Assembly (NCBI GenBank): GCA_011051745.1
Contig: DRKO01000280.1
Span: 1 to 27,920, forward strand
Source: Chloroflexota bacterium
GTDB taxonomy: Bacteria > Chloroflexota > Anaerolineae > Aggregatilineales > UBA3940
Length of the DNA: 27,920 nucleotides
Direction of reading: 5' to 3'
The notes below the pieces were generated by a model that saw only the letters and a program-made list of their open reading frames with translations, ran no database searches and had not been told where the DNA came from. Each line of letters starts with the position of its first letter. Within the stretch, counting starts at the first letter, position 1. This document shows, piece after piece, positions 3,161 to 21,163 of the stretch. Both the position numbers and the translations under genes were made by a program.

Positions 3161-3173
3161 GGTGACCACTCCT

Positions 3174-4400: not shown

Positions 4401-4421
4401 ACAGCAACCTCCGGGCAACTG

Positions 4422-4481
4422 AGAGGGGGGCTGCGAAGTAAAGGCTCCGGTGTGCCGGACTACTTCGAGTTGCCCCCCTCT
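4422..4481. repeat. Nested 60-bp inverted repeat
   Basis: AGAGGGGGGC/GCCCCCCTCT (10 bp perfect) encloses CGAAGTA/TACTTCG and TCCGG/CCGGA. Confidence 0.7.
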
Positions 4482-4498
4482 GACGGTGAAAATGGGGA

Positions 4499-5386
4499 TT
4501 AGCTGATCAACGGAAGGAGCGTCTTGGCGGTTTCCTCAACCAGCCAGCTATAGAACTCCTCCGTCAGCAGGCTGGAGCCGTGCTCCTCGATGAACTTCTT
4601 CTGTTCGGGTGAGATGTCTACCGGGTTGGTCTCGATGGCGTTGGGGTAGGGGTTGGCGGGCGTGCGGTCAATGGGGGCGACGAACTCAACGGTCAGCGCA
4701 CCATCATAGCCGATCACCTTCAGCGTGCCGACCAGCTTCAGCCAGTCCCAGTGCCCCATGCCACAGGCCATGCGGTTGGTATCCGCGACGTGGAAGTCCA
4801 CCAGACGGCCCTTTGCGCTCAGGATGGATTCGTAGGGGTCGGCCTCTTCGATGTTCAGGTGGAAGGCGTCCAGGCAGACGCCGCAGTCATCGGCGACGGC
4901 CTCCGCCAGCGCCAGCGCCTGCGCCGCCCGTGAGCAGAAGTAGGTCTCAAAGCGGTTGATCGGCTCGATGGCAAGCTGGATACCCTCTTTCTTGCCCCAG
5001 TCGTAGCATTCCTTGAGGCTGTCAACCGCCCACTCCCACTCTTCCTCCGGCGTGCCATCGGGCACGATCTTGCCGACGGTGGCCGGAACGATGGTCATGA
5101 TCTCGCCTTCCAGTTCCTTGACCATCGTGATGCAGTCCTTGACGTACTGCACCGACTTCTCGCGCTGGGCCTGATCCTTGGCGACCAGATTACGATCGCC
5201 CAGCATCAGCGTTACCGATCCCCAGCACCGGATGCCGTTGTCCTTGAGGATTTTACGGACTTCCTTTGTGTCGTAGGTGTACGGCTCACCGCTGATCTCG
5301 ATGCTCTCGTAGCCATACTTTGCCAGCCGCCTGACGGTTACTTCGATTGGCTCCGCCCTCATCCAGTTGTGCATTGACAGATGCAT
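4499..5386 (-). CDS. Sugar (phosphate) isomerase/epimerase, xylose-isomerase-like TIM barrel (ketose 3-epimerase/TM0416-like), 295 aa
   Basis: Catalytic and metal motifs EPINRFE, LDAFHLNIEE, FHVADTNR and GYDGALTVEF. SD AAAGGAGG upstream. Confidence 0.85.
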   Translation of the reverse strand: MHLSMHNWMRAEPIEVTVRRLAKYGYESIEISGEPYTYDTKEVRKILKDNGIRCWGSVTLMLGDRNLVAKDQAQREKSVQYVKDCITMVKELEGEIMTIVPATVGKIVPDGTPEEEWEWAVDSLKECYDWGKKEGIQLAIEPINRFETYFCSRAAQALALAEAVADDCGVCLDAFHLNIEEADPYESILSAKGRLVDFHVADTNRMACGMGHWDWLKLVGTLKVIGYDGALTVEFVAPIDRTPANPYPNAIETNPVDISPEQKKFIEEHGSSLLTEEFYSWLVEETAKTLLPLIS

Positions 5387-5458
5387 TTGGTCCCTCCTTT
5401 GGGCAAAAACTACACAGAAACCGTATTCACGCAGAACGCGGGATCGCGTCCCTGCCAG

Positions 5459-5498
5459 GTAAGCCCCTCTGGCGGCGGGGCGAACCGCCGGAGCTTAC
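5459..5498. other. Intergenic stem-loop after the Fe-S protein gene
   Basis: GTAAGC/GCTTAC outer stem and TCTGGCGG/CCGCCGGA inner stem. Confidence 0.5.
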
Positions 5499-5505
5499 TC
5501 ACGTC

Positions 5506-6603
5506 CTAAGCCAGATGATCGGCCAGCAGCTCGTACAACCCCTGCACGCGCAGGCCGAACCGTTCCGCGTGCCGGGCGAGGTGACTCAACGAACCGGCGT
5601 CCTCGGTGACGACCAGCCGTGCCCCGACCCCGGCGGCGTCTGCCAGCCGCGAATACGTCAGGTGGCGGGCGATGTGCGGTTCGGTGAACTGGAGGGCGAC
5701 GTTGCCGCAGGGGTGCGCTCGCTCGCGCCGCCAGAATAGCTCCCGCGCCGGGGCGGGCAGCACGGCCTCCAGAAGCGCACGGGGGGCGTCGTAGCGCGTC
5801 GTGACGCGCACCGAGTGGGTGGGGTCTACGTAGGCGCAGGGTGTCCCGTCGGCGGCCTTCCGAAAGGCCAGAGCGCCTTCTCTGAGCCGCTCCGCCAGAA
5901 AGGTGACCACCTCCTCCAGAACTACGCCGGACGGCCATTCGATCCCCAGCCGCTCATCGTACAACTGGCTGAAGGTGAAGAAATCACCCGGCCCCAGCAC
6001 CAGCAGGCGGGTTGCGCCGGTGGCCTCAAGCTCGGAGAGCGTCTCTCCGGCCAGATCGCGGGCCGTCGAGGGGAAGCCCAGCGAACTTGCCAGATAGCCG
6101 TTGTTGCGCCCCACGCCGATCAGAACCGGCTCAACGCCCACCGCTTTGAGCAGTTTCAGGGCCGCCTCCAGCGCGTCCGGCCAGAGGTAACGCGCCTCGT
6201 CTCCTACAAAGAGGGCGACTTCCCCCTGCCCCTCGACGGGGGCGGGGGACTGCTGTTCGTAGGGGTTTCCCCACTCCTTCAGGGCGCGGTGAGTCTCGTA
6301 CACCACCGCCGGGGCCAGGTCCCGCGCGGCGACATCTGCCCGTGCCGCCGCGATGGCCTCCGGCAGGGGTTGATCAGTGACGCAGTGGGCGCGGCAGGTT
6401 CCGCAATCGGAGCAGCTATACAGGGCCTGCACGGTCTCCTCGTCCCACGCCAGCAGGCCGCGCCCGACCGAGGCGATCATCAGCGCCCAGCCGTGCGGCG
6501 TCAGCGACTCCCTGCGGGTGACATGCCCCACCGGGCAGACATGGCGGCACATCAGGCAGTAACGGCAGTTCTCAGTCGTCAGGATGACGTTTTCAAGTGG
6601 CAT
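5506..6603 (-). CDS. (Fe-S)-binding protein: 2x[4Fe-4S] dicluster plus degenerate CCG (GlpC/HdrD-like) domains, 365 aa
   Basis: CRYCLMCRHVCP and CSDCGTCRAHC at the N-terminus. The remainder has the spacing of two CCG domains but almost no Cys. ATG at 6603 with GGAAGGA upstream; the ORF-track start at 6825 overlaps the upstream gene. Confidence 0.8.
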   Translation of the reverse strand: MPLENVILTTENCRYCLMCRHVCPVGHVTRRESLTPHGWALMIASVGRGLLAWDEETVQALYSCSDCGTCRAHCVTDQPLPEAIAAARADVAARDLAPAVVYETHRALKEWGNPYEQQSPAPVEGQGEVALFVGDEARYLWPDALEAALKLLKAVGVEPVLIGVGRNNGYLASSLGFPSTARDLAGETLSELEATGATRLLVLGPGDFFTFSQLYDERLGIEWPSGVVLEEVVTFLAERLREGALAFRKAADGTPCAYVDPTHSVRVTTRYDAPRALLEAVLPAPARELFWRRERAHPCGNVALQFTEPHIARHLTYSRLADAAGVGARLVVTEDAGSLSHLARHAERFGLRVQGLYELLADHLA

Positions 6604-6635
6604 GGTGTCCTTCCGCTTTCGTGCCGGGGCCTGTA

Positions 6636-8075
6636 TTAGAAGCCAAACCCGACTTTGCCGGGGTTCATGATCCCGTTGGGATCGATCATCCGCTTGAGCC
6701 TCAGCAGGAAGGGCCAGGCCGAGCCGTACTGCCTGCGCATGTAGCGGGCCAGCTTCAGCCCCACCCCGTGATGCTCGTTGATCATGCCCCCGTTTGCCAT
6801 CACGGCCTGCATGGCGGCGTTCCACACCCGATTGTGCAGCCGCAACGCCTCGCGGGCGTCCGCCGGCGGCTCCTCGATGATGAAACGCGAATACAGCATC
6901 ACGCCCCAGTGGAACCAGTGCGAGAAATGGCCGATGAAGCGCACGTTCCAGTCGGCGAAGCCCTCCTCGACGGCCTTCTTCTCAGCGTAGTAGACGGCTT
7001 CGATCCTGTCGTAGGTGGTGACGGTTTCGGTTGTGCCGTACATCCAGGGCAGCTTGAGGTTCTGCGGCGGGTAGTAGAAGTCGTAGCGGTGCGCCCACCA
7101 CGCCTCGCCCGGCTCGCGCCCCAGATCACGCGCCCCCAGCCGGGCGCAAATCTCCATCGCCTTCTGCTCCTGAAGGGCGGCGATGTCCGGATCGCCATCG
7201 AAGCCGAGCACCATGTACGCGCCGTCAAAGTCGTAGCCGAGGATTTTCCGAACGCGGGTCAGCGTGGAGGCCGGATCGTACAGCCGGATGACGAAGGGAT
7301 CGAGGCGGCGGGTCATCATCAGGCGGCCTGCTTCCAGCGCGTTGTGCAGGTCGTCGAACAGCACCGCCCGCAACAGGCGGGCTTCCGGCAGGTAGTCCAC
7401 CTGCATGGTCGCCTCGGTGATGATGCCGAACGTCCCCTCCGCCCCCAGAAACAGGCGGAAGAAGTCCGGGCCGGAGGCGTGCTGCGGAACCGGCGGGGTG
7501 TGGATGATCTCGCCGGTGGGCAACACAACTTCCATGCTGAGCACCAGGTCTTCGGCTTTGCCGTACTTGGTGCTGATCGTCCCCGTCCCGCGCGGAGCCA
7601 GATAGCCGCCCAGCGTGGCGCAGTTGGCGGAGGCCGGATAGTGGGGCAGCGTCAGCCCCTTTTCGTTGAGCGCCCACTCAAGCTGTGTCCCGATGATCCC
7701 GGCCTGCGCGGTGACCGTCAGGGATTTCTCGTCAATCTCGATGATCTTATCCAGCCGCTTTGTGTCCACCAGAATGCCGCCAAAGATCGGCAGCGCTCCG
7801 CCCTGCGTGCCCGATCCGCCGCCCCAGGGGACAACCGGAATACGATACTTGTTGGCGATCTCCATGATCTCGGAGATTTCTTCCGCCGAGGCGGGGTGGA
7901 CGATGTAGTCCGGCGTCCTTAACGGCCTGCCGCGATCCAGCCACATCTGCGGCATCCACGACCAATCGGTCGAGTAGACCAGCTTATCGCTCTCCTCAAC
8001 CGAGATGAAGGCCGGGCCGACGATCTCCTCCAGTTCGCTGCGGATCATTTCAGCCTGGAACAGGGCACGCTTCAC
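6636..8075 (-). CDS. FAD-binding oxidoreductase, VAO/PCMH fold, alkyl-DHAP-synthase (ADPS/YgcU)-like clade, 479 aa
   Basis: Motifs PWGGGSGTQGG, HYPAS, TLGGYLA, GAEGTFGIIT and C-terminal EHHGVG...DPNGIMNPGK. GTG start with AAGGAG upstream. Confidence 0.85.
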   Translation of the reverse strand: MKRALFQAEMIRSELEEIVGPAFISVEESDKLVYSTDWSWMPQMWLDRGRPLRTPDYIVHPASAEEISEIMEIANKYRIPVVPWGGGSGTQGGALPIFGGILVDTKRLDKIIEIDEKSLTVTAQAGIIGTQLEWALNEKGLTLPHYPASANCATLGGYLAPRGTGTISTKYGKAEDLVLSMEVVLPTGEIIHTPPVPQHASGPDFFRLFLGAEGTFGIITEATMQVDYLPEARLLRAVLFDDLHNALEAGRLMMTRRLDPFVIRLYDPASTLTRVRKILGYDFDGAYMVLGFDGDPDIAALQEQKAMEICARLGARDLGREPGEAWWAHRYDFYYPPQNLKLPWMYGTTETVTTYDRIEAVYYAEKKAVEEGFADWNVRFIGHFSHWFHWGVMLYSRFIIEEPPADAREALRLHNRVWNAAMQAVMANGGMINEHHGVGLKLARYMRRQYGSAWPFLLRLKRMIDPNGIMNPGKVGFGF

Positions 8076-8118: not shown

Positions 8119-9594
8119 CTACTCCTGCGGCACGTCGGGATGCGGGGGCATCCAGTAATCCCCTTCGCCCGTCTGGGCCTCGATGACGCGGCTCAGCACA
8201 ACCACCGCCTCGCTGATGACGCGCTCCGGCTGGCTCACAAAGCAGATGCGCAGGTGATCGTTAGAACCGGGGGCCACCAGGAATGCGTCGCCAGGCGTAA
8301 ACGCGAACCCGCGCCGCAGCACCTCGCGGGAGACAACGGTCGCATCAATGCCGGGTGGGAGAGTGACCCAGCAAGCGAATCCGCCTCTGGGATGAGTCCA
8401 GGTGACCCCCGGCGGCATATGCCATCGGAGATCGCGCAGGAGCCGGTCGCGGCGTTCCCGGTAGATGGGGATGACCCGCCGCAGATGGCGTCTGAGCGCG
8501 CCGCTCTGGATGAAGTTGGCGACCGCTCGCTGCACAAAGGGCGGCCCGCAGAAATCAGCCGCGCGGCGCAGCGATACCAGTTGCCGGTGCAACGGCTCCG
8601 GCGCGACGACGTATCCCACCCGCAGGCCGGGCATCATCACTTTGGACATGCTGCTGATGTAGATCACCTGCTCCGCTTCGTCCAGAGATTTCAGCGCCGG
8701 GGCCGGGTCGCCGTCATAGGCAAGCTGGCCGGATGAGTCGTCCTCCACCAGAATCAGGCTGTAACGGCGGGCCAGCGCCAGCAACGCCCTGCGCCGCTCC
8801 GGGGACATCAGCGTGCCAGTGGGGTGGTGGAAGTTGGGGACGGTGTGGAAGAAGCGGGGGCGGTACTGCACGATGATCCGCTCCAGCTCATCCAGACGCG
8901 GCCCGTGTTCATCCAGCGGCACGTCAACGGCCCGCACGTGATAGGTGCGCAGGCTGTTGATCAGGCCGAGATGAGTGGGCCGCTCGACGACCACCACGTC
9001 GCCGGGGCGGGTGAGGGCCTGCGTGATGAGCGAGATTCCCTGCGTGACGCCGGAGGTCACCAGAATGTTATCCGGCATGGCCTCAACGCCGCGCTCGCGC
9101 AGCAGGTCTGCCAGAGCGGTTCGGAGGGCAGGATCGCCCTGCGGCCAGCTATAGCGCAGGAGGGCGGCACTTTCGGCGCGGAGCCTGTGCAGTTCGCCCC
9201 AGAACTCACCCGCCGGGAACAGTTCGGGGTCCGGTTCAGCGTATGCAAACGAGCGCACGATGGCAATCTGGTTGATCTTCGGCTGGTCATCCAGCACACT
9301 GTCCGGCGTCGAGGAATGCCCGACGGAGTCGATCAGCGCCTCTGGCCGGGCCGTGCGGGCGACGAATGTCCCTTTCCCGATAACCGTCTCGATCCAGCCC
9401 TGCGCCCGCAGTTCATCATAGGCCGTCTGCGCTGTCAGGCGCGTTACGCCGAGTTGCTCGGCCATCTGCCGGATGGGGGGGAGCTTGGCTCCCACAGGCA
9501 AGCGGCCCTCCCGTATCTGTTGCCTGATCTGCGCGGCGATCTGCCGGTATAGAGGCTGTGGAGCCTCTCGGTCAACACTGAATGGAAACGGCAC
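8119..9594 (-). CDS. MocR/GabR-family transcriptional regulator (GntR wHTH + PLP-dependent aminotransferase-like domain), 491 aa
   Basis: N-terminal PLYRQIA...LPPIRQMAEQLGVTRLT...GKGTFV. C-terminal PNFHHPTG, EDD, and SSMSKVMMPGLRVGY with the PLP lysine. Confidence 0.92.
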   Translation of the reverse strand: MPFPFSVDREAPQPLYRQIAAQIRQQIREGRLPVGAKLPPIRQMAEQLGVTRLTAQTAYDELRAQGWIETVIGKGTFVARTARPEALIDSVGHSSTPDSVLDDQPKINQIAIVRSFAYAEPDPELFPAGEFWGELHRLRAESAALLRYSWPQGDPALRTALADLLRERGVEAMPDNILVTSGVTQGISLITQALTRPGDVVVVERPTHLGLINSLRTYHVRAVDVPLDEHGPRLDELERIIVQYRPRFFHTVPNFHHPTGTLMSPERRRALLALARRYSLILVEDDSSGQLAYDGDPAPALKSLDEAEQVIYISSMSKVMMPGLRVGYVVAPEPLHRQLVSLRRAADFCGPPFVQRAVANFIQSGALRRHLRRVIPIYRERRDRLLRDLRWHMPPGVTWTHPRGGFACWVTLPPGIDATVVSREVLRRGFAFTPGDAFLVAPGSNDHLRICFVSQPERVISEAVVVLSRVIEAQTGEGDYWMPPHPDVPQE

Positions 9595-9790: not shown

Positions 9791-10825
9791 TCAGCCTCCC
9801 GTCAGTGCGCTCAGGATCAGCCAGTCGAGCTCCTCGTAGTCGCGGGCGGCGATCAGTTCGTTGATCCTCTCCCGATCCAGTGAGCGCACCACCTCGACCA
9901 GCCGGAGGAACATGTGCAGGCTGTTCCGCAGGTGCTTGGTCGCCAGTTCTGCCGGCTGGGTGCGGAGGGCCTTCACGTCCAGCCCGACCATCCCCTTCTC
10001 GTAGAAGCGGTTCTCATCCAGCACGCGCACCTGATTGAAGGCCCGTCGCAGGTCTACCGAGCCGAAGGAGCGATCCTGATCGAACTTCAGGCCGTTCTGA
10101 TCGTTCAGGTGGACGCTCCAGAGCTTATCGAAGGCCAGCGCGAAGCTCATCTCGTCCGCCGGATCAAGCCCGGCCAGAACGGCGTGCGCGGTCTCGACCA
10201 GCGCCCCCACACGCGAAGGGTCGCTGGCCTGAAAACCGAGCGCCAGCGCGTGCCCGATGGTCGGGATGTACGCCAGGTCCATCGGCTCGTTGGGCTTGGG
10301 CTCAATGGCGATGCGAAGCTGCGGGTCGTATTCCAGCAGCGTGTTGACGGCCTCCAGAAGGCGATGGGTGGCCTGCACGGCGTCTTTGGCCTCGCGCATA
10401 TAGGTTCCTTCACGGGCCAGCCAGAGCACCATCAGGTTTGTGCCCAGCTCACGCCCGATGTCGGCGGCCTTTTTGGAGCGCTCGATGGCGTACTCACGCG
10501 CTTTCGGGTCGTTGGAGGTAAACGCCCCGTCAATCGTCATCGGGTGTTCCCACAGGCGCGGCGCGACAAACTCAGCCACCAGCCCGTGATCCTCCAGCCT
10601 GCGGCGCATCGCCCGGGCCTGCTTCGCGATCTCTGAGGCCGAAAGATCGTCAAGGTCAGGCACGGCGTCGTCGTCGTGGAACTGGACGGCGTCAAAGCCC
10701 AGATCGTTGAAGACCTTCAGCTTCTCGTCAAAGGTCAGGGAGGGACGCACGGGCGGCCCGAAGGGATCGGCCCCCTCGTGGATATTCCACGGCCCGAACG
10801 AAAAGCGATACCCGTATTTCTCCAT
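9791..10825 (-). CDS. Divergent xylose-isomerase-family protein, substrate unknown, 344 aa
   Basis: Motifs FSFGPWN, FHDDD, DGAFTSND, WLAREG, IEPKPNEP, ETAH, HLNDQ and FDQD align with XylA. ATG at 10825 with AAGGAGG upstream. Confidence 0.85.
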   Translation of the reverse strand: MEKYGYRFSFGPWNIHEGADPFGPPVRPSLTFDEKLKVFNDLGFDAVQFHDDDAVPDLDDLSASEIAKQARAMRRRLEDHGLVAEFVAPRLWEHPMTIDGAFTSNDPKAREYAIERSKKAADIGRELGTNLMVLWLAREGTYMREAKDAVQATHRLLEAVNTLLEYDPQLRIAIEPKPNEPMDLAYIPTIGHALALGFQASDPSRVGALVETAHAVLAGLDPADEMSFALAFDKLWSVHLNDQNGLKFDQDRSFGSVDLRRAFNQVRVLDENRFYEKGMVGLDVKALRTQPAELATKHLRNSLHMFLRLVEVVRSLDRERINELIAARDYEELDWLILSALTGG

Positions 10826-10914
10826 CGTTGCCTCCTTGTGGAGCGCGGGCACAGACCCGGCGGGAGCCTCCCGCGCTCTGGAAGTGTGTTCAGATTTCTT
10901 TCAGCGCACCGCCA

Positions 10915-12081
10915 TCACAGGGCAACCGTCTGCCCTGTGGCCTGAGACTCAAGCGCGGCGGTAAAGAGATCGTGGCTGCGTGCCGCCTCCTCCGGCGTGG
11001 CGCAGTAGAAGGGCTGCTGCATCCCCTCGCGCCCGTTGACCAGCTCATCGCAGAAGGCGGCCCACATCTGGAGGATGGCGTCTGAGAGGCCAAACTCGAA
11101 GATGCCGCCCGTGATGGTCGGATAGGCCGACTTATAGCCGATGTCCTCCACGTGCCAGGCCTGCGGCCCGCCCGGCGTGTACGGCAGATAGCGCAGCGTG
11201 CGGGGGTACTTGGTGCTGAACTCCGCGCTGAACTCCGTGCCGAGCACCCGGATAAACCAGGTGTCCATCTCGCCGGGGGCGATGCGTTTGGTGGAGAGCA
11301 CCATCGGGAATTGCTGTCCCCCCGCTTCCACCTCGCAGGCCAGAATGGCGTTATCCCACGTCTCGCAGGGAACCATGCGGCCCTCTTTGTCCGGTCGCTC
11401 GGTCATGATGTTGGAGAGCAGGGCACGCACGTTCTGCGGGAACCAGCCCGCGCGGAAGGGGACATGCACGACGTGCATTCCCAGATCGCCCATGCAGCCG
11501 TACTCGCCGTTGATCTCGATCATCCGCTTCCAGTTGATCGGCTTCTGCGGGTTCAGGTCGCTGCTGTGCCAGAACCCGGCTTCCACCTCGATGATCTTCC
11601 CGAAACGCCCTTCCATGATCCACTGCGTGATGCGGTATGCGCCGGGGTAGAAGGGGAATTCGGACGAGCAACGCACCAGCACATCGGGGTTGGCCTCGAT
11701 GGCGGCGTTGATCTGCTCGTTGGCCGCTTTATCTATCCCGAAAGGCTTCTCACCGAGCAGGTGCTTGCCCGCCTCGATGATGTCCACGTAAAACTGAGCG
11801 TGCAGATTGTGCGGGATGGCGCAGTAGATCGCGTCAATCTCCGGATCGGCCAGCAATTCGTGGTAATCGGTCGTCGCCAGCCGGACCGACTCGAAGTTGT
11901 CGGTGTACCAGTTCATCACCTGTGGGTTGACATCGCAGACGGCGACGATGCGCGGCAAGAACCCCGGCCCCTGCCCCGTTTTCGGGTCGGAGAGGTGCGC
12001 CCAGCGAGCGACGGCGCTGGCAAACTCGCGCCCCATCAGCCCGCAGCCGATGATCCCAAAGTCTATGATTTTCTGTGCCAT
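10915..12081 (-). CDS. Gfo/Idh/MocA-family NAD(P)-dependent oxidoreductase, 388 aa
   Basis: Rossmann motif GIIGCGLMG, GEKP, and GDLGMH (D-x-x-x-H). SD GGAGGAG upstream. Confidence 0.9.
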   Translation of the reverse strand: MAQKIIDFGIIGCGLMGREFASAVARWAHLSDPKTGQGPGFLPRIVAVCDVNPQVMNWYTDNFESVRLATTDYHELLADPEIDAIYCAIPHNLHAQFYVDIIEAGKHLLGEKPFGIDKAANEQINAAIEANPDVLVRCSSEFPFYPGAYRITQWIMEGRFGKIIEVEAGFWHSSDLNPQKPINWKRMIEINGEYGCMGDLGMHVVHVPFRAGWFPQNVRALLSNIMTERPDKEGRMVPCETWDNAILACEVEAGGQQFPMVLSTKRIAPGEMDTWFIRVLGTEFSAEFSTKYPRTLRYLPYTPGGPQAWHVEDIGYKSAYPTITGGIFEFGLSDAILQMWAAFCDELVNGREGMQQPFYCATPEEAARSHDLFTAALESQATGQTVAL

Positions 12082-12098
12082 GAGAGTCTCTCCTCCGC

Positions 12099-12938
12099 TC
12101 AGGCCGAGGAGCGCAGCAGCTTCAGGGCCTCTTCCGGTGTCGCCCCTTCGTGGACAATCGCCATAAAGGCGCGGGTGATCGCCGTCGGATTCGGATGCTG
12201 GATGACGTTGCGCCCGTAGACGATCCCGCGTGCCCCCTGCTGCATCAGGTCGTAGGTGCGTTGCAGGATTTCCTCCTCGGAGGCCTTGCTGCCCCCGCGC
12301 ACCAGCACCGGCACATCACCGGCCACCTCGATGACGGTGTGGTACACGCTCACATCGTCGGTCGGGTCGGCCTTGATCACGTCGGCCCCCAGTTCCACCG
12401 CCTGACGCACCAGCGGGATGATTTTGTCGGGGTCGCCGTCCACCATATAGCCCCCGGCCACCTCGTTGGGCTGCATCACCAGCGGCTCGATCATGAGCGG
12501 CATCCCGTAGCGCTCACATTCCGGCTTCAGCCGGTTGATGTTCTGGATGCACTGGTGGTACACCTCCGGCTGGCCGGGGATGCGAAACAGGTTGACGACC
12601 ACACAGGCCGCGTCGAGGCGGATGGCCTGCTCGACCGGATTCTCGATCAACTCGCTGAAAAGATGGTGGGGCAGTTCCCGCCCGTAGACGTTGGCGATGT
12701 CGGTTCGCAGGACAAGGGACGGCTTCTCCTTGCCCGGCACGCCCTGCAGGATCGGGGCCTGACCGGGGCTGAGCTGGATGGCGTCCGGGTTGGCCTCGAC
12801 GACGGCGGCGATCACCTTCCGCATGTCCTCGATGCCGGTCAGGAAGCGCCGTTCGTTGAAGAAGCCGTGATCAATGGCAACATCAAAACACTTCCCGTCA
12901 GCAGCCAGCAGGCGGTTAAGCCGTGCGCTAACGTTCAT
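12099..12938 (-). CDS. Class I (Schiff-base) aldolase, DhnA/DeoC/LacD superfamily, 279 aa
   Basis: Motifs VAIDHG, LRTD, IEPLV, GADVIKAD (Schiff-base Lys), VLVRGG and GIVYGRNV. Confidence 0.85.
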   Translation of the reverse strand: MNVSARLNRLLAADGKCFDVAIDHGFFNERRFLTGIEDMRKVIAAVVEANPDAIQLSPGQAPILQGVPGKEKPSLVLRTDIANVYGRELPHHLFSELIENPVEQAIRLDAACVVVNLFRIPGQPEVYHQCIQNINRLKPECERYGMPLMIEPLVMQPNEVAGGYMVDGDPDKIIPLVRQAVELGADVIKADPTDDVSVYHTVIEVAGDVPVLVRGGSKASEEEILQRTYDLMQQGARGIVYGRNVIQHPNPTAITRAFMAIVHEGATPEEALKLLRSSA

Positions 12939-12966
12939 TTTCGTTCCGTCCTCTCTCGTATTCCGG

Positions 12967-13920
12967 CTACGATTTCACCGGCGTGGAGTCCATAAATTCA
13001 AGCGTTTCTGAAAGCGAGCGGACGCCGCCCGCCGCGCCGACACCCGTCACGCACAGCGCACCGACGGCGTTGGCAAAGCGGGCTGTCTTCTCCAGCGGCC
13101 AGCCCTGCCACACCCCGGCGATGAACCCGGCGGCGAAGGCATCCCCCGCGCCGGTCGCGTCCACCACCTCCACCTCGAAGGCAGGGAGCCGCACCGTCTG
13201 GCCCTCCTGCGTCATCACAAGGCAGCCCTCCGCGCCCATCTTCAGCCCGACGGTTCCCACCCCCTCATCCAGCAGGGCGCGGGCGACCTCTGCCGGGTCT
13301 TCCAGACCGGTTAACGCCTGTGCCTCTACCAGACTGGGGACGAAATAATCGGTGTGGGGCAGGCAGGGCTTCAGCGTCTTCATCCAGCGGCCGGTGTCGT
13401 CCCAGACGGTATCCAGAAAGGTTGTCACGCCTGCCGCCTGTGCCTCGCGCAGCAGTTCGGCGGTCGGCTGGCCGTCAAGGCCGGGCATCACCAGCGCCCC
13501 GGCCACATGCAGGATGGAAGCCCCCCGGACGATCTCCCGGTCCACATCATCCAGCGTCAGGCGGGCGTTGGCCCCGATGTAGTGTACAAAACGCCGCTCG
13601 CCGTCCGGGTCCACCATGACCATCGTGGCCGAAGTCCCCGTTTCGGGGTCGCGCTTCACGCCCTCTGTTCCGATGCCGCGACCGGCCAGGGCCTCCAGCA
13701 GAAAATCGCCGAAGGGATCGTCCCCGACCTTGCCGATCACCTCAACCGGCAGACCCAGCCGCGCCAGTCCGGTCGCCGAGTTGACGGCGCAGCCGCCGGT
13801 GTGGAGACTCATCTCATCCACCAGAACCAGCCGCCCCGGCTCAGGGAAGGCCCGCAGGGGTCGCCCCACCACGTCGGCGACCATGATCCCCAGGCAGACG
13901 ATGGGCTTGCGTTCGTTCAT
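12967..13920 (-). CDS. PfkB/ribokinase-family carbohydrate kinase, 317 aa
   Basis: Motifs GGCAVNSATGLARLG, GKVGDDPFG and VDATGAGDAFAAG. Confidence 0.92.
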   Translation of the reverse strand: MNERKPIVCLGIMVADVVGRPLRAFPEPGRLVLVDEMSLHTGGCAVNSATGLARLGLPVEVIGKVGDDPFGDFLLEALAGRGIGTEGVKRDPETGTSATMVMVDPDGERRFVHYIGANARLTLDDVDREIVRGASILHVAGALVMPGLDGQPTAELLREAQAAGVTTFLDTVWDDTGRWMKTLKPCLPHTDYFVPSLVEAQALTGLEDPAEVARALLDEGVGTVGLKMGAEGCLVMTQEGQTVRLPAFEVEVVDATGAGDAFAAGFIAGVWQGWPLEKTARFANAVGALCVTGVGAAGGVRSLSETLEFMDSTPVKS

Positions 13921-14061
13921 CGGGAAGCCTCTCCTCTCTGCTGCTACAGGCTCACAGGGGGTGTAATGTAGCCTTCACCCCCTCATCGTCGCTGTGCTCT
14001 GATGTGCCCCCCCCGTGGCGGGGGGATGGATGGGTCGGACGTTGCGACGCCCGCCGATCCG

Positions 14062-15576
14062 TTATGCTCCCACCGTCTCCGCGATGGCCCGGAACTCCCC
14101 GGCCAGCGCGGGGTACAGAGCGCGATAGCGCGGGTAGACCTTCTCGTAGAGGGCGGCGGTCTCCGCCGATGGCGTCGTCTGGCCGGTGATCTGGATGGTC
14201 GCCTCGCAGGCGGCGGGCACATCCTCGAAGAGGCCCGCGCCAACGCCCGCCAGCAGCGCGGCTCCGAAGGCCGCGCCCTCGGTCGTGTTGACCGTCACCA
14301 GTTCGACGTTGAGCACATCGGCCATGATCTGCCGCCAGAGCGGGCTTTTCGCGCCACCGCCGGAGATGCGCACCTGCTCAATTGCCCCCAGCCCGGCCTC
14401 CCGGATCAGCGTGAAGCTATCCCGGATGCCGAAGGCAACCCCTTCCAGCACGGCGCGAGTCATGTGGGCACGGCGATGGCGCACCGTCAGCCCGACCCAT
14501 GCGCCACGCGCCAGCGGGTCGGGGTAGGGGGTACGCTCGCCGGTCAGGTAGGGCAGGAAGAGCAACCCCTCGCTGCCGGGCGGAACGTCCTCCGCCTCGG
14601 CGGTCAGGTCGTCAAAGGCAACCTCCGGCGCGAGCGTGTCGCGATACCATTGCAGGCTCCCCGCCGCGCTGAGCATCACACCCATGAAGTGCCAGCGATC
14701 CGGCACGGCGTGGCAGAAGGCATGCAACCGTCCTTCCGGCTCGACGAGGGGGGCTTCTGTGGTGGCGAACACCACGCCCGATGTGCCCAGCGTCAGCGCG
14801 ATGATGCCCGGCTGCACCGCGCCCACGCCGACGGCCTGCGCCGCCTGATCGCCGCCACCCCCGACAACGGGGGTCCCTTCCCGGAGGCCGGTTGCTGCGG
14901 CGGCCTCCGCGCTGACATGGCCGGTGATCTCCGGCCCCTCGAAGGTGGGCGGCAACCACTCAGCGGGGATGTCCAGCGCCTTCAGTACCTCCTCCGACCA
15001 GGTGCGTTTCGCCAGGTCAAAGAGCAACGTTCCCGCGCCGCCCGCGCGGTCCATGGCATACTCGCCCGTCAGCCGGTAGCGGATGTAATCTTTCGGCAAC
15101 AGGATGTGACGCGCCTTCGCGTATATCTCCGGCTCGTTCTGCTGCACCCACAGAATCTTGGGCGCGGTGAAGCCGGTCAGCGCGTCGTTGCCGGTGATCT
15201 GGATCAGGCGGTCTTTGCCCAGCCGACGGCGGATTTCGTCGCACTGGGGGCCGGTGCGCTGATCGTTCCACAGAATGGCAGGCCGCAGCACCTCGCCGTG
15301 CTCGTCGAGCAGCACCAGCCCGTGCATCTGGCCCGTCAGCCCGATGGCGGCCACCGCCGAGCCATCCACCCCCGCCTCGTCCAGTGCCCGGCGGATGCTC
15401 TGGCTGATCCCATCCCACCAGTCGCGGGGGTCCTGTTCCGACCAGAGGGGGCGCGGCGTGGAGAGGGTGAGGGGGGTGGTCGCGCTGCTGACCACCCGCC
15501 CCTGCCCATCAATCAGCAGCGCCTTGGCCCCGGTCGTTGAAACATCAATCCCAAGCAGCAGCATCTGGTCTGTCAT
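14062..15576 (-). CDS. xylB: Xylulokinase (FGGY family), 504 aa
   Basis: Motifs GIDVSTTG, GLTGQMHG, AILWNDQRT, GFTAPK, GGGDQAA, LGTSG, PYLTGERTP and GGGAKS. Adjacent to xylA. Confidence 0.9.
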   Translation of the reverse strand: MTDQMLLLGIDVSTTGAKALLIDGQGRVVSSATTPLTLSTPRPLWSEQDPRDWWDGISQSIRRALDEAGVDGSAVAAIGLTGQMHGLVLLDEHGEVLRPAILWNDQRTGPQCDEIRRRLGKDRLIQITGNDALTGFTAPKILWVQQNEPEIYAKARHILLPKDYIRYRLTGEYAMDRAGGAGTLLFDLAKRTWSEEVLKALDIPAEWLPPTFEGPEITGHVSAEAAAATGLREGTPVVGGGGDQAAQAVGVGAVQPGIIALTLGTSGVVFATTEAPLVEPEGRLHAFCHAVPDRWHFMGVMLSAAGSLQWYRDTLAPEVAFDDLTAEAEDVPPGSEGLLFLPYLTGERTPYPDPLARGAWVGLTVRHRRAHMTRAVLEGVAFGIRDSFTLIREAGLGAIEQVRISGGGAKSPLWRQIMADVLNVELVTVNTTEGAAFGAALLAGVGAGLFEDVPAACEATIQITGQTTPSAETAALYEKVYPRYRALYPALAGEFRAIAETVGA

Positions 15577-15679: not shown

Positions 15680-16849
15680 TCAGCGCACCCCCAGCAGCAG
15701 CTCAACCGTTAGCTGATCCAGCCGCTCGTAGGCCAGCCCGCGCTGACCGAGCGCCACACGGTCGAACGTCTCCGCCCTGAGCGCGGCGGCTTTATCGGCA
15801 CTGTAGGCCCCCTGATAGGCCGCCATCGAGCCGTCGTCGGCCCGGATTTCCTCCAGCAGGGCCTGAATCTCCGGGTCTTCGTTCCACTGCCGGGCCTTCT
15901 CTTTGAGGATCAGGTAGGTGCGCATGCAGCCCCGCGCAAAGTCCTTCACGCCCTCGTAGTCCTCGGTGCGGTAGGCGTGGGCGTCGAAGTGGCGGCTACC
16001 CTCGTACCCGACATCCTCCAGAAACTTGACCAGGAAGAAGGCGCTCTTCAGGTTGACCGCCCCGAAGCGGAAGTCCTGATCGTAGCGGCCAAAGGCCTGA
16101 TCGTTGAGGTCAATGTGGAACAGCTTGCCCGCCTCCCACGCCTGAGCGACGGCGTGGACGAAGTTCAACCCGGCCATGTGCTCGTGCGCCACCTCTGGAT
16201 TGACGCCCACCATCTCTGGATGATCGAGCGTCTCGATGAAGGCCAGCATCGCGCCCGTCGTCGGCAGGAAGATGTCGCCGCGCGGCTCGTTGGGCTTGGC
16301 CTCCAGCGCAAACCGGAGGTCGTATCCCTGATCGATCACGTATTCGGTCAGGAAGTTGATCGCCTCGCGGTAGCGCTTGATCGCCCCGGCGGGGTCTTTG
16401 CTGGCGTCGGTTTCGGTTCCCTCGCGCCCGCCCCAGAAGACGTACACCTTCGCGCCCAGCTCGACGCCCAGATCAATGGCGTTCATCGTCTTTTGCAGGG
16501 CATAGGCTCGCACGCGCGGATCGTTGGAGGTCAGCGCCCCGTCCTTGAAGGCCGGATCGGTGAAGAGGTTGGTGGTCGCCATGGGGACGACCAGCCCGGT
16601 TTCCTCCAGCGCCTGTTTGAACTCCCTGACGATCCGGTCGCGCTCGGCGGGGGTGGCATCAATGGGAACCAGGTCGTTGTCGTGGAAGTTGACGCCGTAC
16701 GCGCCCACTTCCGCCAGCAGGTGAACCAGCTCGACCGGCGAGAGCGGCTGCCGCACCGGCTCGCCGAACGGGTCACGCCCGATGTTCCCGACCGTCCAGA
16801 GGCCAAAGGTGAATTTGTGCTCCGGTCTGGGTTCGTACTGGTCAGTCAT
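15680..16849 (-). CDS. xylA: Xylose isomerase, class I (actinobacterial/Thermus type), 389 aa
   Basis: Motifs [54 protein letters not shown] and FDAH, with all canonical ligands present. ATG at 16849 with AAAGGA upstream. Confidence 0.93.
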
Positions 16850-16909
16850 ACCAATTCCTTTCCCGTGGAAACAGCATCCGGCATCCCGGTGATACGGCAG
16901 GGGCAACCA

Positions 16910-17803: not shown

Positions 17804-19003
17804 CTAGTATTTGATATCAACCTGCTTCCGCGCTTCCGCCGATTCGAGGATCGCATCGCAGATCACGGCTGCCCGGTAGCCGTCCTCAAAGGTCGCGCCG
17901 TAGGGAGCAACGTCTTTATCGTTCACGATGCAGTCCAGGAAGTGGGTGATCTCATGCACGAAGGTGTGCTCCCACCCGATGATGTGACCGTGCGGCCACC
18001 AGTTCTCCCACCAGGGGTGGTAGCTCTCCGTGATCAGCGCGTCGTGGAAGCCCTGAGTCTCCTTCGGCTCCTCGCCCACCCAGAAGACTTCCAGTTCGTT
18101 CATCCGCTCCAGATTGAAGCGGATGCTGCCCTTCTCGGCGTTGATCTCGAAGCAGTTGTAGTTCTTCCGACCGGCGGCGAAGCGCGTGGACTCCAGCGTG
18201 CCGATGGCGCCGTTCTCGAACTCAATCGCCGCCACGAAGGCATCGTCCACGTCCACCTTGCCAACCCCGCTGCCATCGGGCAGGGGACGCTCCTCAATGA
18301 AGGTGCGGGTCATGGCCGCCACGCTCTTGATGCCACCAACGAGGAAGTGGGCCAGGTCAATGATGTGTGCGCCCAGGTCGCCGAGCGCACCGCTGCCCGC
18401 CACTTTCTTGTCCAGCCGCCATATCTTGGGCGTGCCGTAGTGGGGCATGATCCACTCCTGCAGATACACCGCGCGGAAGTGGTAAATCTGCCCCAGCGCG
18501 CCGCTATCAATCAGGTTCCTGATCTGGCGCACAGCCGGGACGAAGCGGTAGTTGAAGGCCACCATGTGCTTGACGCCCGCCTTCTGCACGGCATCGAGCA
18601 TCTCTTTCGCCTCTGCGGCTGAACGGGCGAGCGGCTTCTCGCACAGGACGTGCTTCCCGGCCTGGGCCGCCAGAATGGACGGCTCGGCGTGGGTGTCGTT
18701 CGGGCCGCCGTTGTCGAAAAGCTGGACCTCCTCGTCCTCAAGCATCTTGTGCCAGTCGGTGTAGTATCTGGCATAGCCGTAGCGGCGGGCTGCCTCGGCG
18801 ACGGCTTCTTCGTTCCGCCCACAGATGGCAACCAGCCTGGGGATGGCCGGGGGCGGGTACATCATGTAGGGAATCTTCTTGAAGGCGTTGGTGTGGGCTT
18901 TCCCCATGAAGGCGTACCCCAGCATCCCGACGCCGATCTCAGGAATTTCTCCGCCGGCCCTGGCTCCGGCCATCGCCGTGAACCCGGTTTCTTTCTCACT
19001 CAT
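17804..19003 (-). CDS. Gfo/Idh/MocA oxidoreductase, levoglucosan-dehydrogenase/glycoside 3-dehydrogenase-like, 399 aa
   Basis: Motifs GYAFMGKAH, CEKPLAR, VAFNYR, YLQEW, AGSGALGDLGAH, VDVDD and TRFAAGRKNY. ATG at 19003 with GGAGG upstream. Confidence 0.88.
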   Translation of the reverse strand: MSEKETGFTAMAGARAGGEIPEIGVGMLGYAFMGKAHTNAFKKIPYMMYPPPAIPRLVAICGRNEEAVAEAARRYGYARYYTDWHKMLEDEEVQLFDNGGPNDTHAEPSILAAQAGKHVLCEKPLARSAAEAKEMLDAVQKAGVKHMVAFNYRFVPAVRQIRNLIDSGALGQIYHFRAVYLQEWIMPHYGTPKIWRLDKKVAGSGALGDLGAHIIDLAHFLVGGIKSVAAMTRTFIEERPLPDGSGVGKVDVDDAFVAAIEFENGAIGTLESTRFAAGRKNYNCFEINAEKGSIRFNLERMNELEVFWVGEEPKETQGFHDALITESYHPWWENWWPHGHIIGWEHTFVHEITHFLDCIVNDKDVAPYGATFEDGYRAAVICDAILESAEARKQVDIKY

Positions 19004-19109
19004 GAGGCCCTCCAAACTCTACACAGACAGTCAGCCACTCAATCGGGGCAGGCGGGGCGGGGAAGACGCCCGCCCCCAGCCTGCTCAGGTAGCGCGGATA
19101 AGCGCCCGC

Positions 19110-20114
19110 TCACTCTTCGGCGGCGAAGGCGGCGTCGAACGCAACCGCCGAGGGGGTGAAGTCCTGCTTCCGGATCATCTGCAGGGCTTCGGGAGCGCCC
19201 CACTCGCGATCCATGCCCGTATCCTCCCACTCGATTGAGAGCGGGCCGTCGTAGCCGACGCGGTTAAGGGCGCGGATCAGCTTGTCCCAGTTCACATCGC
19301 CCCGCCCCGGCGAGACGAAGTCCCACCCGCGACGGTGGTCGCCGAAGTCAAGGTGTGAGGAGAGGATGCTGTTGCGCCCGGTGAGCTGCACCCGCGAGTC
19401 CTTCACGTGGACGTGCCAGATGCGATCTCCGAACTCGTTGATGAACTCAACCGGATCAACAAACTGGTGGATGAAGTGGCTGGGGTCAAAGTTGAAGCCG
19501 AAAGCGGGATGATGGTTGATCGCCTCCAGCGCACGGTGGGCGGTGATGATGTCATAGGCGATCTCGGTCGGGTGCACCTCCAGCCCGAACTTGATGCCGT
19601 TCTCCTGGAACACATCCATGATCGGCGTCCAGCGGGCGGCGAAGTCCTCATAGCCCTTGTTGATGTCATCCTGCGTGGTGGGCGGGAAGAAGTACAGGTT
19701 CTTCCACACGCTGCTGCCGGTGAAGCCGTTGACGACCTTCACGCCGAACTTCCTGGCGGCAATGGCGGTGTTCTTCATCTCCTCGGCGGCACGCTGGCGC
19801 ACGCCTTCCGGATCGCCGTCGCCCCAGATGCGATCGGGCAGGATGCGGCGGTGGCGCTCATCGATCGGGTCATCGCAGACGCACTGCCCGACCAGATGGG
19901 TGCTGATGGCGAAGCACTTGAGATTGTACTTGTTCAGGATGTCCCAGCGGCTCTGGACGTAGCTATCATCTTCCAGGGCTTTATCCACCTCGAAGTGGTC
20001 ACCCCAGCAGGCCAGCTCCAGGCCATCGAATCCCCATTCGCTGGCCTTTTTCGCCAGGTCCTCCAGAGTCAGGTCAGCCCATTGTCCCGTAAACAGAGTA
20101 ACCGGTCGTCCCAT
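19110..20114 (-). CDS. Xylose-isomerase-like TIM barrel (IolE / keto-sugar hydratase-eliminase-like), 334 aa
   Basis: Motifs [34 protein letters not shown] and SIEWED. SD AAAGGAG upstream. Confidence 0.85.
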
Positions 20115-20149
20115 CTTTCCTGCTCCTTTGCTCGGTGGGTCAAACCATC

Positions 20150-20183
20150 AAAAAAGCTCTGCTTTATGGATATAAAGAGAGCT
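20150..20183 (-). terminator. Intrinsic-terminator-like hairpin with U-tract, overlapping the ketose 3-epimerase stop codon
   Basis: Minus strand AGCTCT-CTTTAT-atcc-ATAAAG-c-AGAGC-TTTTTT. Confidence 0.6.
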
Positions 20184-21030
20184 ACGCTAAAAGTTGCTTC
20201 AGGAACTTCAGCCCATCCTCTGCCAGAGCGTCCTGGCTGGGAGCGAGCGAGCGCCAGATGGCCGCCGCGCGGGCAATGCTCTTGACCTTGGCGGTGAACG
20301 ATTCGATCACGACCGGGCCGTCGTAGTTGATGTCCTTCAACGCCTGAGCGACATCCTCCCAGGGCACATGCCCAGAGCCCGGCGCACCGCGATCGTTCTC
20401 ACAGGCGTGCACATGGCGCAGACGCGGGCCGGCGGCGCGGATCGCATCCCCGATGGATTTTTCTTCGATGTTCATGTGGAACGTGTCCAGCATGATCTGG
20501 CAGGATGGGTGATTGACCCTGTCAATGACCTCAAGGGCCTGCTCCGCCAGATTGATGAAGCTGGTCTCAAAGCGGTTGAGCGGCTCCAGACAGAGCACAA
20601 CGCCGTGCTCGCCGGCATAGTCGGCCAGCCTGCTGAGCTGCTCGACCAGCAGATCGGTGTCGCGTGCCCGCTCCTCCGGTGTGGCCTGCCAGGTGCGGCC
20701 AACCGCCGAGTAGAGCGGCCCGACCAGATTCGTCGCCCCGATCGTCTGCGCGGCCTCGATGCAGCCCCGGACGTAGTTCATGCCGTTTTCCCGGATCGAC
20801 TCGTCAGGGTGGATCAGGTCGCGGTCCGGCCCCATCGCGGCGCAGACGCTCACCCCCAGCCCGTGCTCCCGGATGATCTCCGCGCCGCGTGCGTGATCCA
20901 GATCGTCCAGACTTTCGAGGGGGACTTCGATCCAGTCGAACCCCATTCCGGCCACCTTTGGAGCCAGCTTCTCAAGCTCCGCAGTGGTAAGCGGCGAGGT
21001 CCAAACCCAGGTGTTCACCCCGAATCTCAT
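20182..21030 (-). CDS. D-tagatose/D-psicose/L-ribulose 3-epimerase-family protein, 282 aa
   Basis: Motifs EPLNRFETS, LDTFHMNIEE, HACENDRG and VIESF, i.e. the E/D/H/E metal set of ketose 3-epimerases. Confidence 0.88.
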   Translation of the reverse strand: MRFGVNTWVWTSPLTTAELEKLAPKVAGMGFDWIEVPLESLDDLDHARGAEIIREHGLGVSVCAAMGPDRDLIHPDESIRENGMNYVRGCIEAAQTIGATNLVGPLYSAVGRTWQATPEERARDTDLLVEQLSRLADYAGEHGVVLCLEPLNRFETSFINLAEQALEVIDRVNHPSCQIMLDTFHMNIEEKSIGDAIRAAGPRLRHVHACENDRGAPGSGHVPWEDVAQALKDINYDGPVVIESFTAKVKSIARAAAIWRSLAPSQDALAEDGLKFLKQLLA

Positions 21031-21163
21031 GATGCCACTCTCCCTGTGTGACTAGATTAAAAGAGGAAACCGGAACGCTACTCTCTCCGCCACCGACCCG
21101 GAAGGGCGCCTTCGGGCGACTCCGATCAGGGGCCTGTCCGTGCCCCATTCTGCCGGTGGGCCA

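Follow-up and report, generated by a model that had tools for sequence, protein, structure and literature searches.

The four genes that lie directly downstream of xylAB in a 27,920-nucleotide stretch of a Chloroflexota genome (hereafter the window, meaning the whole stretch analyzed) raise the question of which sugar they serve and by what route. All four are on the minus strand, and they encode a PfkB-family kinase similar to YdjH (12967–13920; 317 amino acids), a DhnA/LsrF-type class I aldolase (12099–12938; 279 amino acids), a Gfo/Idh/MocA dehydrogenase (10915–12081; 388 amino acids), and an isomerase that is a paralogue of the xylose isomerase XylA (9791–10825, 344 amino acids, from an ATG start, or 9791–10852, 353 amino acids, from a GTG start). 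A first-pass annotation of the window had described them as tightly packed behind xylAB and as not needed for xylose use, and both points hold: the open reading frame (ORF) coordinates give intergenic gaps of 28, 17, and 89 bp (62 bp for the last gap with the GTG start), xylA and xylB score above their equivalog cut-offs, and the XylA/XylB route does not need the cassette genes. We find that the cassette belongs to a catabolic orphan module, widespread among bacteria, of which it is a local variant; the module is built around an uncharacterized aldolase-dehydrogenase pair, follows a familiar logic, and probably cleaves a sugar to yield a triose phosphate and a small aldehyde.

Distribution and conservation of the aldolase-dehydrogenase pair

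A protein search with the cassette aldolase returned thousands of matches, the best 120 of which were 71–85% identical, and at least 594 aldolase loci, the best 80 of them 68–79% identical, were identified when one genome per species was scanned. Orthologues with 68–85% identity span at least 10 phyla; the best 80 loci include representatives of Chloroflexota, Firmicutes (Paenibacillus, Bacillus, Cohnella, and Alicyclobacillus), Bacteroidota (Pedobacter, Mucilaginibacter, and Sphingobacterium), Verrucomicrobiota, Planctomycetota, Acidobacteriota, Gemmatimonadota, Deinococcales, Abditibacteriota, and Armatimonadota. Proteobacteria also carry the pair, including on Rhizobium megaplasmids, and the aldolase family was found on 192 plasmid records, mainly Rhizobium and Sinorhizobium megaplasmids. 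The aldolase is accessory in its own phylum, being present in 7 of the 201 genomes of an even sample. With hundreds of species carrying it, the module is an orphan of wide occurrence and is not particular to the window.

Gene neighborhoods were compared across 82 other loci by tblastn and ORF clustering. In 69 of the 78 loci whose sequence extends far enough, the gene immediately following the aldolase gene encodes a dehydrogenase orthologue (46–70% identity). The dehydrogenase was also found in seven genomes of the 201-genome sample, six of them aldolase carriers; in one of these six the two genes are 2.2 Mb apart, and in the single genome with the dehydrogenase alone the gene is at the extreme start of a contig. 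Five Verrucomicrobia with an unlinked aldolase gene each contain exactly one dehydrogenase orthologue elsewhere (51–52% identity), together with a class II fructose-bisphosphate aldolase (FBA). The aldolase and the dehydrogenase therefore form the conserved core of the module, and their pairing is almost invariant. Because the dehydrogenase is tied to the aldolase, its function belongs at the aldolase step and not at sugar entry; the earlier suggestion that this enzyme makes the ketose from a polyol or an aldose fits poorly, since it accompanies the aldolase and not the isomerase or the kinase, and such a first-step role is less likely than a role beside the aldolase step.

Ten Verrucomicrobiota loci (L043, L051, L065, L076, L078, L081, and L088–L091) contain a solitary aldolase gene (70% identity) amid housekeeping genes such as those for cytidylate kinase, glucan phosphorylase, and YidC. 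In two closely related Verrucomicrobia, the unlinked dehydrogenase gene is followed by a gene of the purine nucleoside phosphorylase (PNP)/UDP-phosphorylase family and a 3-deoxy-D-manno-oct-2-ulosonic acid (Kdo) transferase gene, an arrangement that we did not take as a lead.

RefSeq names the two proteins generically ("aldolase" and "Gfo/Idh/MocA family oxidoreductase"). No paper on the pair was found in the literature searched, which leaves out many subscription papers; within that literature, the earlier statement that no characterized pathway contains this pair stands.

Interchangeable kinases and isomerases

The two other roles of the cassette are filled more variably. A PfkB kinase gene was present within 6 kb of the aldolase gene in 58 loci, mostly from another subfamily of 340–370 amino acids that is 27–36% identical to the window kinase; kinases of the window type were found in L008 (77% identity), L029 (50%), L085 (48%), and L038 (45%), and a few loci contained an FGGY kinase in place of PfkB. 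An isomerase gene was located within 6 kb in 36 loci, encoding a D-lyxose/D-mannose isomerase of the cupin family PF07385 in 33 and a XylA paralogue in 4 (L008, L029, L050, and L068, the only ones among the 82 compared loci in which orthologues of the XylA paralogue adjoin the module), with both types present in L050. All four roles occurred together in 32 loci. Kinase and isomerase are thus interchangeable between non-homologous or distantly related types. The combination present in the window (YdjH-like kinase and XylA paralogue) recurs in L008 and L029, and partly in L050 and L068, making the window form a minority variant of the module. The proposal that the four genes are conserved together was therefore borne out in part: the pairing of aldolase and dehydrogenase hardly varies, a kinase usually accompanies it, and an isomerase often does, but the exact four-gene combination was present in few loci only.

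Genes for DeoR, GntR, or LacI regulators, for ATP-binding cassette (ABC) transporters of the CUT2 type or major facilitator superfamily (MFS) sugar transporters, and for DUF4432 proteins recur near the module; together, these neighbors make up a catabolic context, and the four genes are a real module of the catabolic type. Bacillus-type loci contain paired Zn-dehydrogenases with a DeoR regulator. Six Chloroflexota loci (L010, L011, L016, L022, L024, and L026) carry a second, LacD-like aldolase (NF009498, 281 bits) beside the core, and all of these except L016 have a second PfkB kinase as well, which was identified as tagatose-kinase-like for L026 only, so that a single operon contains two aldolases and usually two kinases; by BLAST, the short second kinases of some Chloroflexi loci differ from the window-type kinases. 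In a plasmid operon of Thioclava, the aldolase gene is accompanied by genes for a Gfo/Idh/MocA enzyme, an isomerase of the D-lyxose/D-mannose family, and a carbohydrate kinase, as well as for a LacI regulator, a binding protein, an ATPase, and two permeases, all under generic RefSeq names. No shared glycosidase that would name the sugar was found in the compared loci, with GH92, GH38, GH39, and GxGYxYP proteins each present in few loci only.

Sequence features of the four proteins

The aldolase matches PF01791 (DeoC/LacD; 144.1 bits, cut-off 23.8) and contains the DVAIDHGFFNE segment quoted in the first-pass annotation. It has the features of a DhnA-type (class IA) Schiff-base aldolase, namely, the PF01791 domain, the Asp23 of a DHG motif (D23-H24-G25, invariant in 16 orthologues), and Lys189 (GADVIKADP), which aligns with the Schiff-base Lys of MJ0400 (GADIVKTSY), LsrF (GAQIIKTYY), and the fructose-1,6-bisphosphate (FBP) aldolase of T. 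tenax (GADAMKIKY). Its scores were below cut-off for 2-amino-3,7-dideoxy-D-threo-hept-6-ulosonate (ADH) synthase (AroA'; TIGR01949, 130.8 vs. 299), LsrF (NF006081, 120 vs. 297), archaeal class IA FBA (NF040816, 120 vs. 430), and FbaB (NF006704, 21.8 vs. 277). The nearest solved structures are those of MJ0400 (105 bits) and LsrF (75 bits). The archaeal class IA aldolases, MJ0400/ADH synthase, and LsrF, which are its best sequence matches, share its fold family and Schiff-base Lys; however, these matches reach only 66–105 bits, and the cassette aldolase differs in having no aligned Tyr146 and in carrying an inserted GGYxVDG segment that is invariant in its family.

Three further PF01791 proteins are encoded by the same genome. 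One, on contig C277, is a class I FBP aldolase of the FbaB type (NF006704, 491.7 bits; cut-off 277); the others are DeoC and a LacD-like aldolase, the latter beside a GatZ homologue on contig C335. The FbaB-type enzyme has no meaningful sequence similarity to the cassette aldolase, and since the genome contains this separate class I FBA, the cassette aldolase is not its only or usual FBP aldolase; a role as sole glycolytic FBA is ruled out by this enzyme, as well as by the class II FBA of the five Verrucomicrobia with a solitary aldolase gene. No sequence test supports the view of the cassette aldolase as an ordinary FBP aldolase, although it could still be active on FBP.

The kinase matches PF00294 (PfkB; 228.9 bits) and shows the hallmarks of the PfkB/ribokinase family, i.e., this domain, a GG pair at residues 42–43, and DATGAGD at residues 254–260; an RBS-like (ribosome binding site) sequence, GAGAGGAGAGG, precedes its ATG. 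It scored below the NCBIfam equivalog cut-offs for IolC (178.1 vs. 300), ribokinase (157.4 vs. 299.65), tagatose kinase (132.8 vs. 420), and fructokinase (105.7 vs. 450). With both enzymes below all curated cut-offs and a separate class I FBA (NF006704) in the genome, the kinase and the aldolase are, by every curated model, not an ordinary fructokinase and an ordinary FBP aldolase, a result that agrees with the first-pass annotation. Among solved structures, E. coli YdjH (3h49) is closest to the kinase, with 158 bits over an end-to-end alignment; the match to the structure of sulfofructose kinase is weaker (95 bits). According to work from the Raushel laboratory, YdjH is reportedly a C1 kinase of 2-keto sugars, and its gene is said to adjoin an aldolase gene; YdjI is reportedly a class II aldolase. 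The E. coli ydj cluster (YdjH, YdjI, YdjJ/YdjL, YdjG, and YdjF) resembles the module in being an orphan set of kinase, aldolase, and oxidoreductase genes with a DeoR regulator, and in having, as in the Bacillus-type module loci, two Zn-dehydrogenases; it differs in containing neither a Gfo/Idh/MocA enzyme nor an isomerase.

The dehydrogenase contains the second motif quoted earlier (GLMGREFASAVARW) and matches PF01408 (GFO_IDH_MocA; 54.5 bits, cut-off 24), with scores far from the equivalog cut-offs for levoglucosan dehydrogenase (NF052479, 81.8 vs. 650) and inositol 2-dehydrogenase IolG (TIGR04380, 51.3 vs. 355); the solved structures nearest to it are those of levoglucosan dehydrogenase and scyllo-inositol/L-glucose dehydrogenase (approximately 70 bits each). 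It has the characteristic elements of the family, i.e., a Rossmann GxGxxG motif (GCGLMG, residues 12–17), an EKP motif with the catalytic Lys (residues 111–113), and a D-x3-H dyad (D199-LGM-H203), and these elements, as well as Asp50 at the end of strand 2, are conserved in 36 orthologues. An Asp at this position is typical of NAD+ users and, accordingly, of oxidation. A prediction of a complex between aldolase and dehydrogenase gave a score of zero, which is no answer and weighs neither for nor against binding.

The isomerase matches the Pfam model of the xylose-isomerase-like TIM barrel (81.5 bits) and is 38% identical to the true XylA of the window; its score against the actinobacterial XylA model (TIGR02631) is 221 bits, below the cut-off of 447, and the nearest solved structures are xylose isomerases of Streptomyces and Actinoplanes (approximately 175 bits). 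It retains the catalytic His/Asp, the Lys, and most metal ligands of XylA. The position equivalent to Asp245, a metal-1 ligand, is His in all four orthologues (VHLNDQ vs. IDLNDQ in the true XylA), the position equivalent to Phe94 is Trp in the family (APRLW vs. TTNLF), and the C-terminal domain is shorter by approximately 35 residues. The protein thus falls outside class I XylA by equivalog score, metal ligand set, and C-terminal domain, and the altered pocket (His, Trp, and shortened C-terminus) argues for a substrate other than xylose. Overall, the catalytic motifs are intact in all four proteins, the exceptions being in the isomerase, with its His at the Asp245-equivalent position and its shortened C-terminal domain.

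A proposed route through a ketose phosphate

We give about an even chance to a route resembling those for L-fucose and L-rhamnose, in which an aldose would be converted via a ketose and a ketose-1-phosphate to dihydroxyacetone phosphate (DHAP) and an aldehyde, the latter being oxidized by the dehydrogenase. The aldose would be isomerized to the ketose by the XylA paralogue in the window and by the D-lyxose/D-mannose cupin in most other bacteria; the PfkB kinase would phosphorylate the ketose, most likely at C1; the class I aldolase would split the ketose-1-phosphate into DHAP and an aldehyde; and the NAD-dependent Gfo/Idh/MocA enzyme would oxidize this aldehyde to an acid. The combination of isomerase, PfkB kinase, and class I aldolase that the first-pass annotation had recognized as a pathway logic fits this route. 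We made the assignment entirely from gene content, gene order, and co-occurrence, and from these we infer the order of the steps, phosphorylation at C1, action of the dehydrogenase on the aldolase product, and a D-threo ketose. The last point comes from the isomerases: two non-homologous types, a XylA-like one related to enzymes for aldoses of the gluco/xylo type and a cupin related to enzymes for their C2 epimers of the manno/lyxo type, suggest one shared D-threo ketose, which would have the configuration that FBP-type aldolases accept. The swapping of isomerases and kinases fits a convergence on one ketose phosphate that is then handled by the invariant pair. Candidate ketoses are fructose, xylulose, 6-deoxy-fructose, and a heptulose, which would give glyceraldehyde, glycolaldehyde, lactaldehyde, and a tetrose, respectively; candidate aldoses are of the gluco/xylo type where the isomerase is XylA-like and of the manno/lyxo type where it is a cupin.

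By analogy, this logic resembles the breakdown of L-fucose and L-rhamnose, as well as animal fructolysis. The same four roles are found in the fucose and rhamnose systems (FucI/FucK/FucA with FucO or AldA; RhaA/RhaB/RhaD; RhaEW), and some module loci contain a CUT2 transporter with a binding protein similar to the rhamnose solute-binding protein (SBP). However, there is no relevant homology: the module relies on a DhnA-type class I aldolase instead of a class II enzyme, in most loci on a PfkB instead of an FGGY kinase, on a Gfo/Idh/MocA oxidoreductase, and on a XylA paralogue or a cupin as isomerase. RhaEW of rhamnose catabolism is reportedly a fused aldolase-lactaldehyde dehydrogenase, i.e., an aldolase tightly paired with an aldehyde dehydrogenase from outside the ALDH (aldehyde dehydrogenase) family.

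The sulfoglycolytic Embden-Meyerhof-Parnas (sulfo-EMP) pathway (YihS, YihV, YihT, and YihU) proceeds through an isomerase, a PfkB C1 kinase, a class I PF01791 aldolase, and then an aldehyde oxidoreductase (PMC10665668), and shares with the module this step logic and the PF01791 aldolase; it differs in that YihT belongs to a LacD-like branch and in that the module has neither a sulfoquinovosidase nor an isomerase of the YihS or PF02952 type. We rejected sulfo-EMP as an identity for the module, as the published Pfam sets of sulfo-EMP1 and sulfo-EMP2 contain neither cupin PF07385 nor Gfo/Idh/MocA (PMC10665668) and no sulfoquinovosidase accompanies the module.

Oxidoreductase genes that follow the module in some loci lend slight support to a 2-hydroxyacid end product. 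FAD-linked oxidases with Fe-S/CCG partners are encoded just after the module in three phyla (window 5506–8075; L008:3735–6283; L023:5636–7090; and Bacteroidota), a fused FAD/Fe-S/CCG protein of 943 amino acids resembling 2-hydroxyacid oxidases follows the kinase in Mucilaginibacter and Pedobacter (L049, L052, L057, L060, and L067), and an Ldh_2-family dehydrogenase follows the module in L018. These genes may represent a follow-up oxidation of a 2-hydroxyacid or a mere neighborhood. In L060 (4838–8146) and its Bacteroidota relatives (Mucilaginibacter and Pedobacter), genes for a DUF5107-TPR protein of 1100 amino acids, a HAD hydrolase, an MFS sugar transporter, and a GH92 protein precede the module; a literature search for DUF5107 found one passing mention.

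Several observations weigh against the proposed route. The compared loci show no conserved gene nearby for a lactonase, a glycerate kinase, or any other evident follow-up enzyme, and small open-chain aldehydes are not among the usual targets of Gfo/Idh/MocA enzymes, which mostly oxidize sugars at ring hydroxyls or at the hemiacetal C1. Tyr146 of the T. tenax FBP aldolase has no Tyr counterpart in the cassette aldolase (segment PLVMQPN), so the chemistry of the latter may differ in detail. L008, an Anaerolineales bin, contains the closest relative of the window locus (proteins 77–82% identical), and its dehydrogenase (L008:1899–2528) is a remnant of 209 amino acids with three in-frame deletions (residues ~26–94, 113–158, and 255–324), located beside an intact kinase, aldolase, and XylA paralogue (77–81% identity); the remnant could represent real decay or an assembly artefact, and its position beside intact genes suggests that the dehydrogenase is dispensable there. 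Finally, a sister aldolase subfamily is paired with a dehydrogenase similar to GlpD that probably acts before the aldolase, which keeps an upstream role of the dehydrogenase among the possibilities for the cassette as well.

A more specific and rather doubtful version of the proposed route is that the pair serves a class of sugars without known catabolism, such as the manno-heptoses of lipopolysaccharide (LPS) or 6-deoxy-D-hexoses (e.g., D-rhamnose), or that it represents a natural xylulose-1-phosphate pathway, which to our knowledge is so far known only as an engineered route. In the case of a heptose, the sugar may be converted via a heptulose and a heptulose-1-phosphate to DHAP and a tetrose. 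The Gfo/Idh/MocA enzyme would then serve as a tetrose 1-dehydrogenase, a kind of reaction that is normal for this family.

Alternative explanations and genomic setting

A serious alternative, although with only about one chance in five, is that the dehydrogenase acts just before the aldolase and oxidizes what the kinase makes (a phosphorylated polyol or sugar), so that the aldolase would receive a keto-phosphate for cleavage. Parallels exist in GlpD, which makes DHAP from glycerol-3-phosphate, and in EryB of erythritol catabolism. The tie of the dehydrogenase to the aldolase, and not to isomerase or kinase, suits a step on either side of the cleavage; the catalytic triad of the dehydrogenase is of the sugar/inositol type, and some Bacillus-type loci have two Zn-dependent polyol dehydrogenases and no isomerase. 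The sister aldolase subfamily (approximately 53% identity) also speaks for this reading. It is found on Sinorhizobium and Rhizobium megaplasmids (178 plasmid records with <60% identity), and in Sinorhizobium meliloti pSymB (L093; CP140921.1, 1217852–1236682) it is encoded with a glycerol-3-phosphate-dehydrogenase-like (GlpD-like) enzyme and an FGGY kinase, as well as a GMC oxidoreductase, an aldo/keto reductase, a SorC-type regulator, and a CUT2 ABC transporter, with related loci on plasmids of Rhizobium, Phyllobacterium, and Parasedimentitalea; this locus looks like another orphan polyol or sugar route, here in a well-studied model organism. However, the 36 loci with an isomerase and a ketose kinase would already yield a ketose phosphate without further oxidation, an oxidized ketose phosphate would be a diketo compound whose cleavage gives a reactive 2-oxoaldehyde, and a phosphate-binding signature was not demonstrated in the dehydrogenase.

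Somewhat less probable again is a set for mannose and lyxose (here for sugars of the glucose/xylose type) like lmuKAI of enterohemorrhagic E. coli (EHEC), in which a kinase of the fructokinase/xylulokinase type would feed glycolysis, the aldolase would be an extra FBP aldolase that raises the flux, and the dehydrogenase would have a side role. The nearest published operon to the module is lmuKAIZYX of EHEC O157:H7 OI-167, which supports growth on lyxose and mannose and whose products are a lyxose/mannose isomerase of the cupin type, a kinase active as a fructose kinase, an aldolase resembling FBA, and a CUT2 transporter (PMC10128022). The joining of these four elements in one operon matches the layout of the commonest module form, the Thioclava plasmid operon equals the lmu layout plus the dehydrogenase, mannosidase genes (GH92 and GH38) flank some module loci, and the very strong conservation of the cassette aldolase is reminiscent of central-metabolism enzymes. 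Nevertheless, this reading offers no explanation for the near-obligate dehydrogenase partner; lmu contains no Gfo/Idh/MocA gene, and the window has a XylA paralogue in place of the cupin. LmuA, which is 41% identical to S. aureus FBA (PMC10128022), is unrelated to the cassette aldolase, and the latter falls short of the archaeal class IA FBA model (120 vs. 430) and has no aligned Tyr146; moreover, carrier genomes have a standard FBA of their own (FbaB-type here and class II in the five Verrucomicrobia), and the patchy presence of the aldolase in its phylum (7 of 201 genomes) is unlike that of a central enzyme. Since lmuK and lmuA are dispensable on lyxose in EHEC, the published lmu pathway is itself a model (PMC10128022).

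The genes around the cassette were considered as part of the same system. The window has a G+C content of approximately 64% and belongs to a genome bin of 3.4 Mb in 502 contigs (89.65% complete), in which it is contig C280; nearly all of its genes are on the minus strand, including all those listed here. A separate sugar gene set (17804–26828) is located upstream of xylAB on the same strand and includes a CUT1-type ABC importer (a binding protein at 25443–26828, two permeases, and two ATPases), a TIM barrel protein similar to psicose-3-epimerase (20182–21030; 208 bits, cut-off 300), a second, IolE-like TIM barrel protein (19110–20114), and a Gfo/Idh/MocA enzyme similar to levoglucosan dehydrogenase (17804–19015; 386 bits, cut-off 650). 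This set is followed by the true xylA (15680–16906; TIGR02631, 594.5 bits, cut-off 447) and the true xylB (14062–15576; TIGR01312, 603.9 bits, cut-off 380). Downstream of the cassette are genes for a MocR/PdxR-like regulator (8119–9594) and for FAD/Fe-S proteins, an epimerase, a UPF0261 protein, and a hydrolase (2231–8075), with the FAD oxidase and its Fe-S protein at 5506–8075.

The spacer of 141 nt between xylB and the kinase gene (13921–14061, minus strand) contains G+C-rich hairpins without a U-tract (e.g., C7-GCCA-G8), with a minimum free energy of −60 kcal/mol for the spacer (z = −2.25 vs. shuffles); a consensus scan of this spacer identified no promoter, and terminator-like sites were no commoner in it than in shuffled sequences. 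The hairpins may represent a terminator or attenuator of a type outside the consensus scan, or a repeat element. A kinase similar to XylB (51% identity) adjoins the module in only one other locus, L034; as the cassette isomerase is a XylA paralogue, a functional tie of the cassette to xylose is possible.

That the cassette is one stage of a single long pathway spanning this minus-strand island (the 17804–26828 set, xylAB, the cassette, and the 2231–8075 genes) seems distinctly improbable. All island genes are co-oriented, in L008 the genes for the FAD oxidase and its Fe-S partner likewise come right after that for the XylA paralogue, without the MocR gene, and in a Bacillus locus a gene similar to psicose epimerase and resembling the one at 20182–21030 directly precedes the aldolase gene (L015:9094–9963). 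However, because L008 is a close relative of the window, with proteins 77–82% identical, the gene order that they share is not independent evidence, and in the other 80 loci the aldolase-dehydrogenase core lies in quite different surroundings; the flanking modules and the cassette were largely seen to occur independently in most genomes. Hardly credible is a biosynthetic role, in which the aldolase would act like ADH synthase or enzymes of the 6-deoxy-5-ketofructose 1-phosphate (DKFP) type and the dehydrogenase would catalyze the next oxidative step towards a cyclitol or aromatic precursor; the best matches of the aldolase are indeed ADH synthase (NCBIfam) and MJ0400 (solved structures, 105 bits), but the ADH synthase score is far below cut-off, the aldolase is accompanied by sugar kinases, aldose isomerases, sugar transporters, and DeoR/GntR/LacI repressors, and the distribution is patchy and accessory.

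Implications

The aldolase-dehydrogenase pair, present in at least 594 species genomes, is named only generically, and once its function is assigned, thousands of genes would gain an annotation together; the environmental sugar that carriers from soil and water and those associated with plants harvest through it would become known as well. With its fixed pair and its interchangeable isomerases and kinases, the module represents a natural experiment in pathway assembly. If the proposed reading is true, the module would constitute a natural ketose-1-phosphate route (through fructose-, xylulose-, or heptulose-1-phosphate), which would make it relevant to the metabolic engineers who have built such routes artificially.

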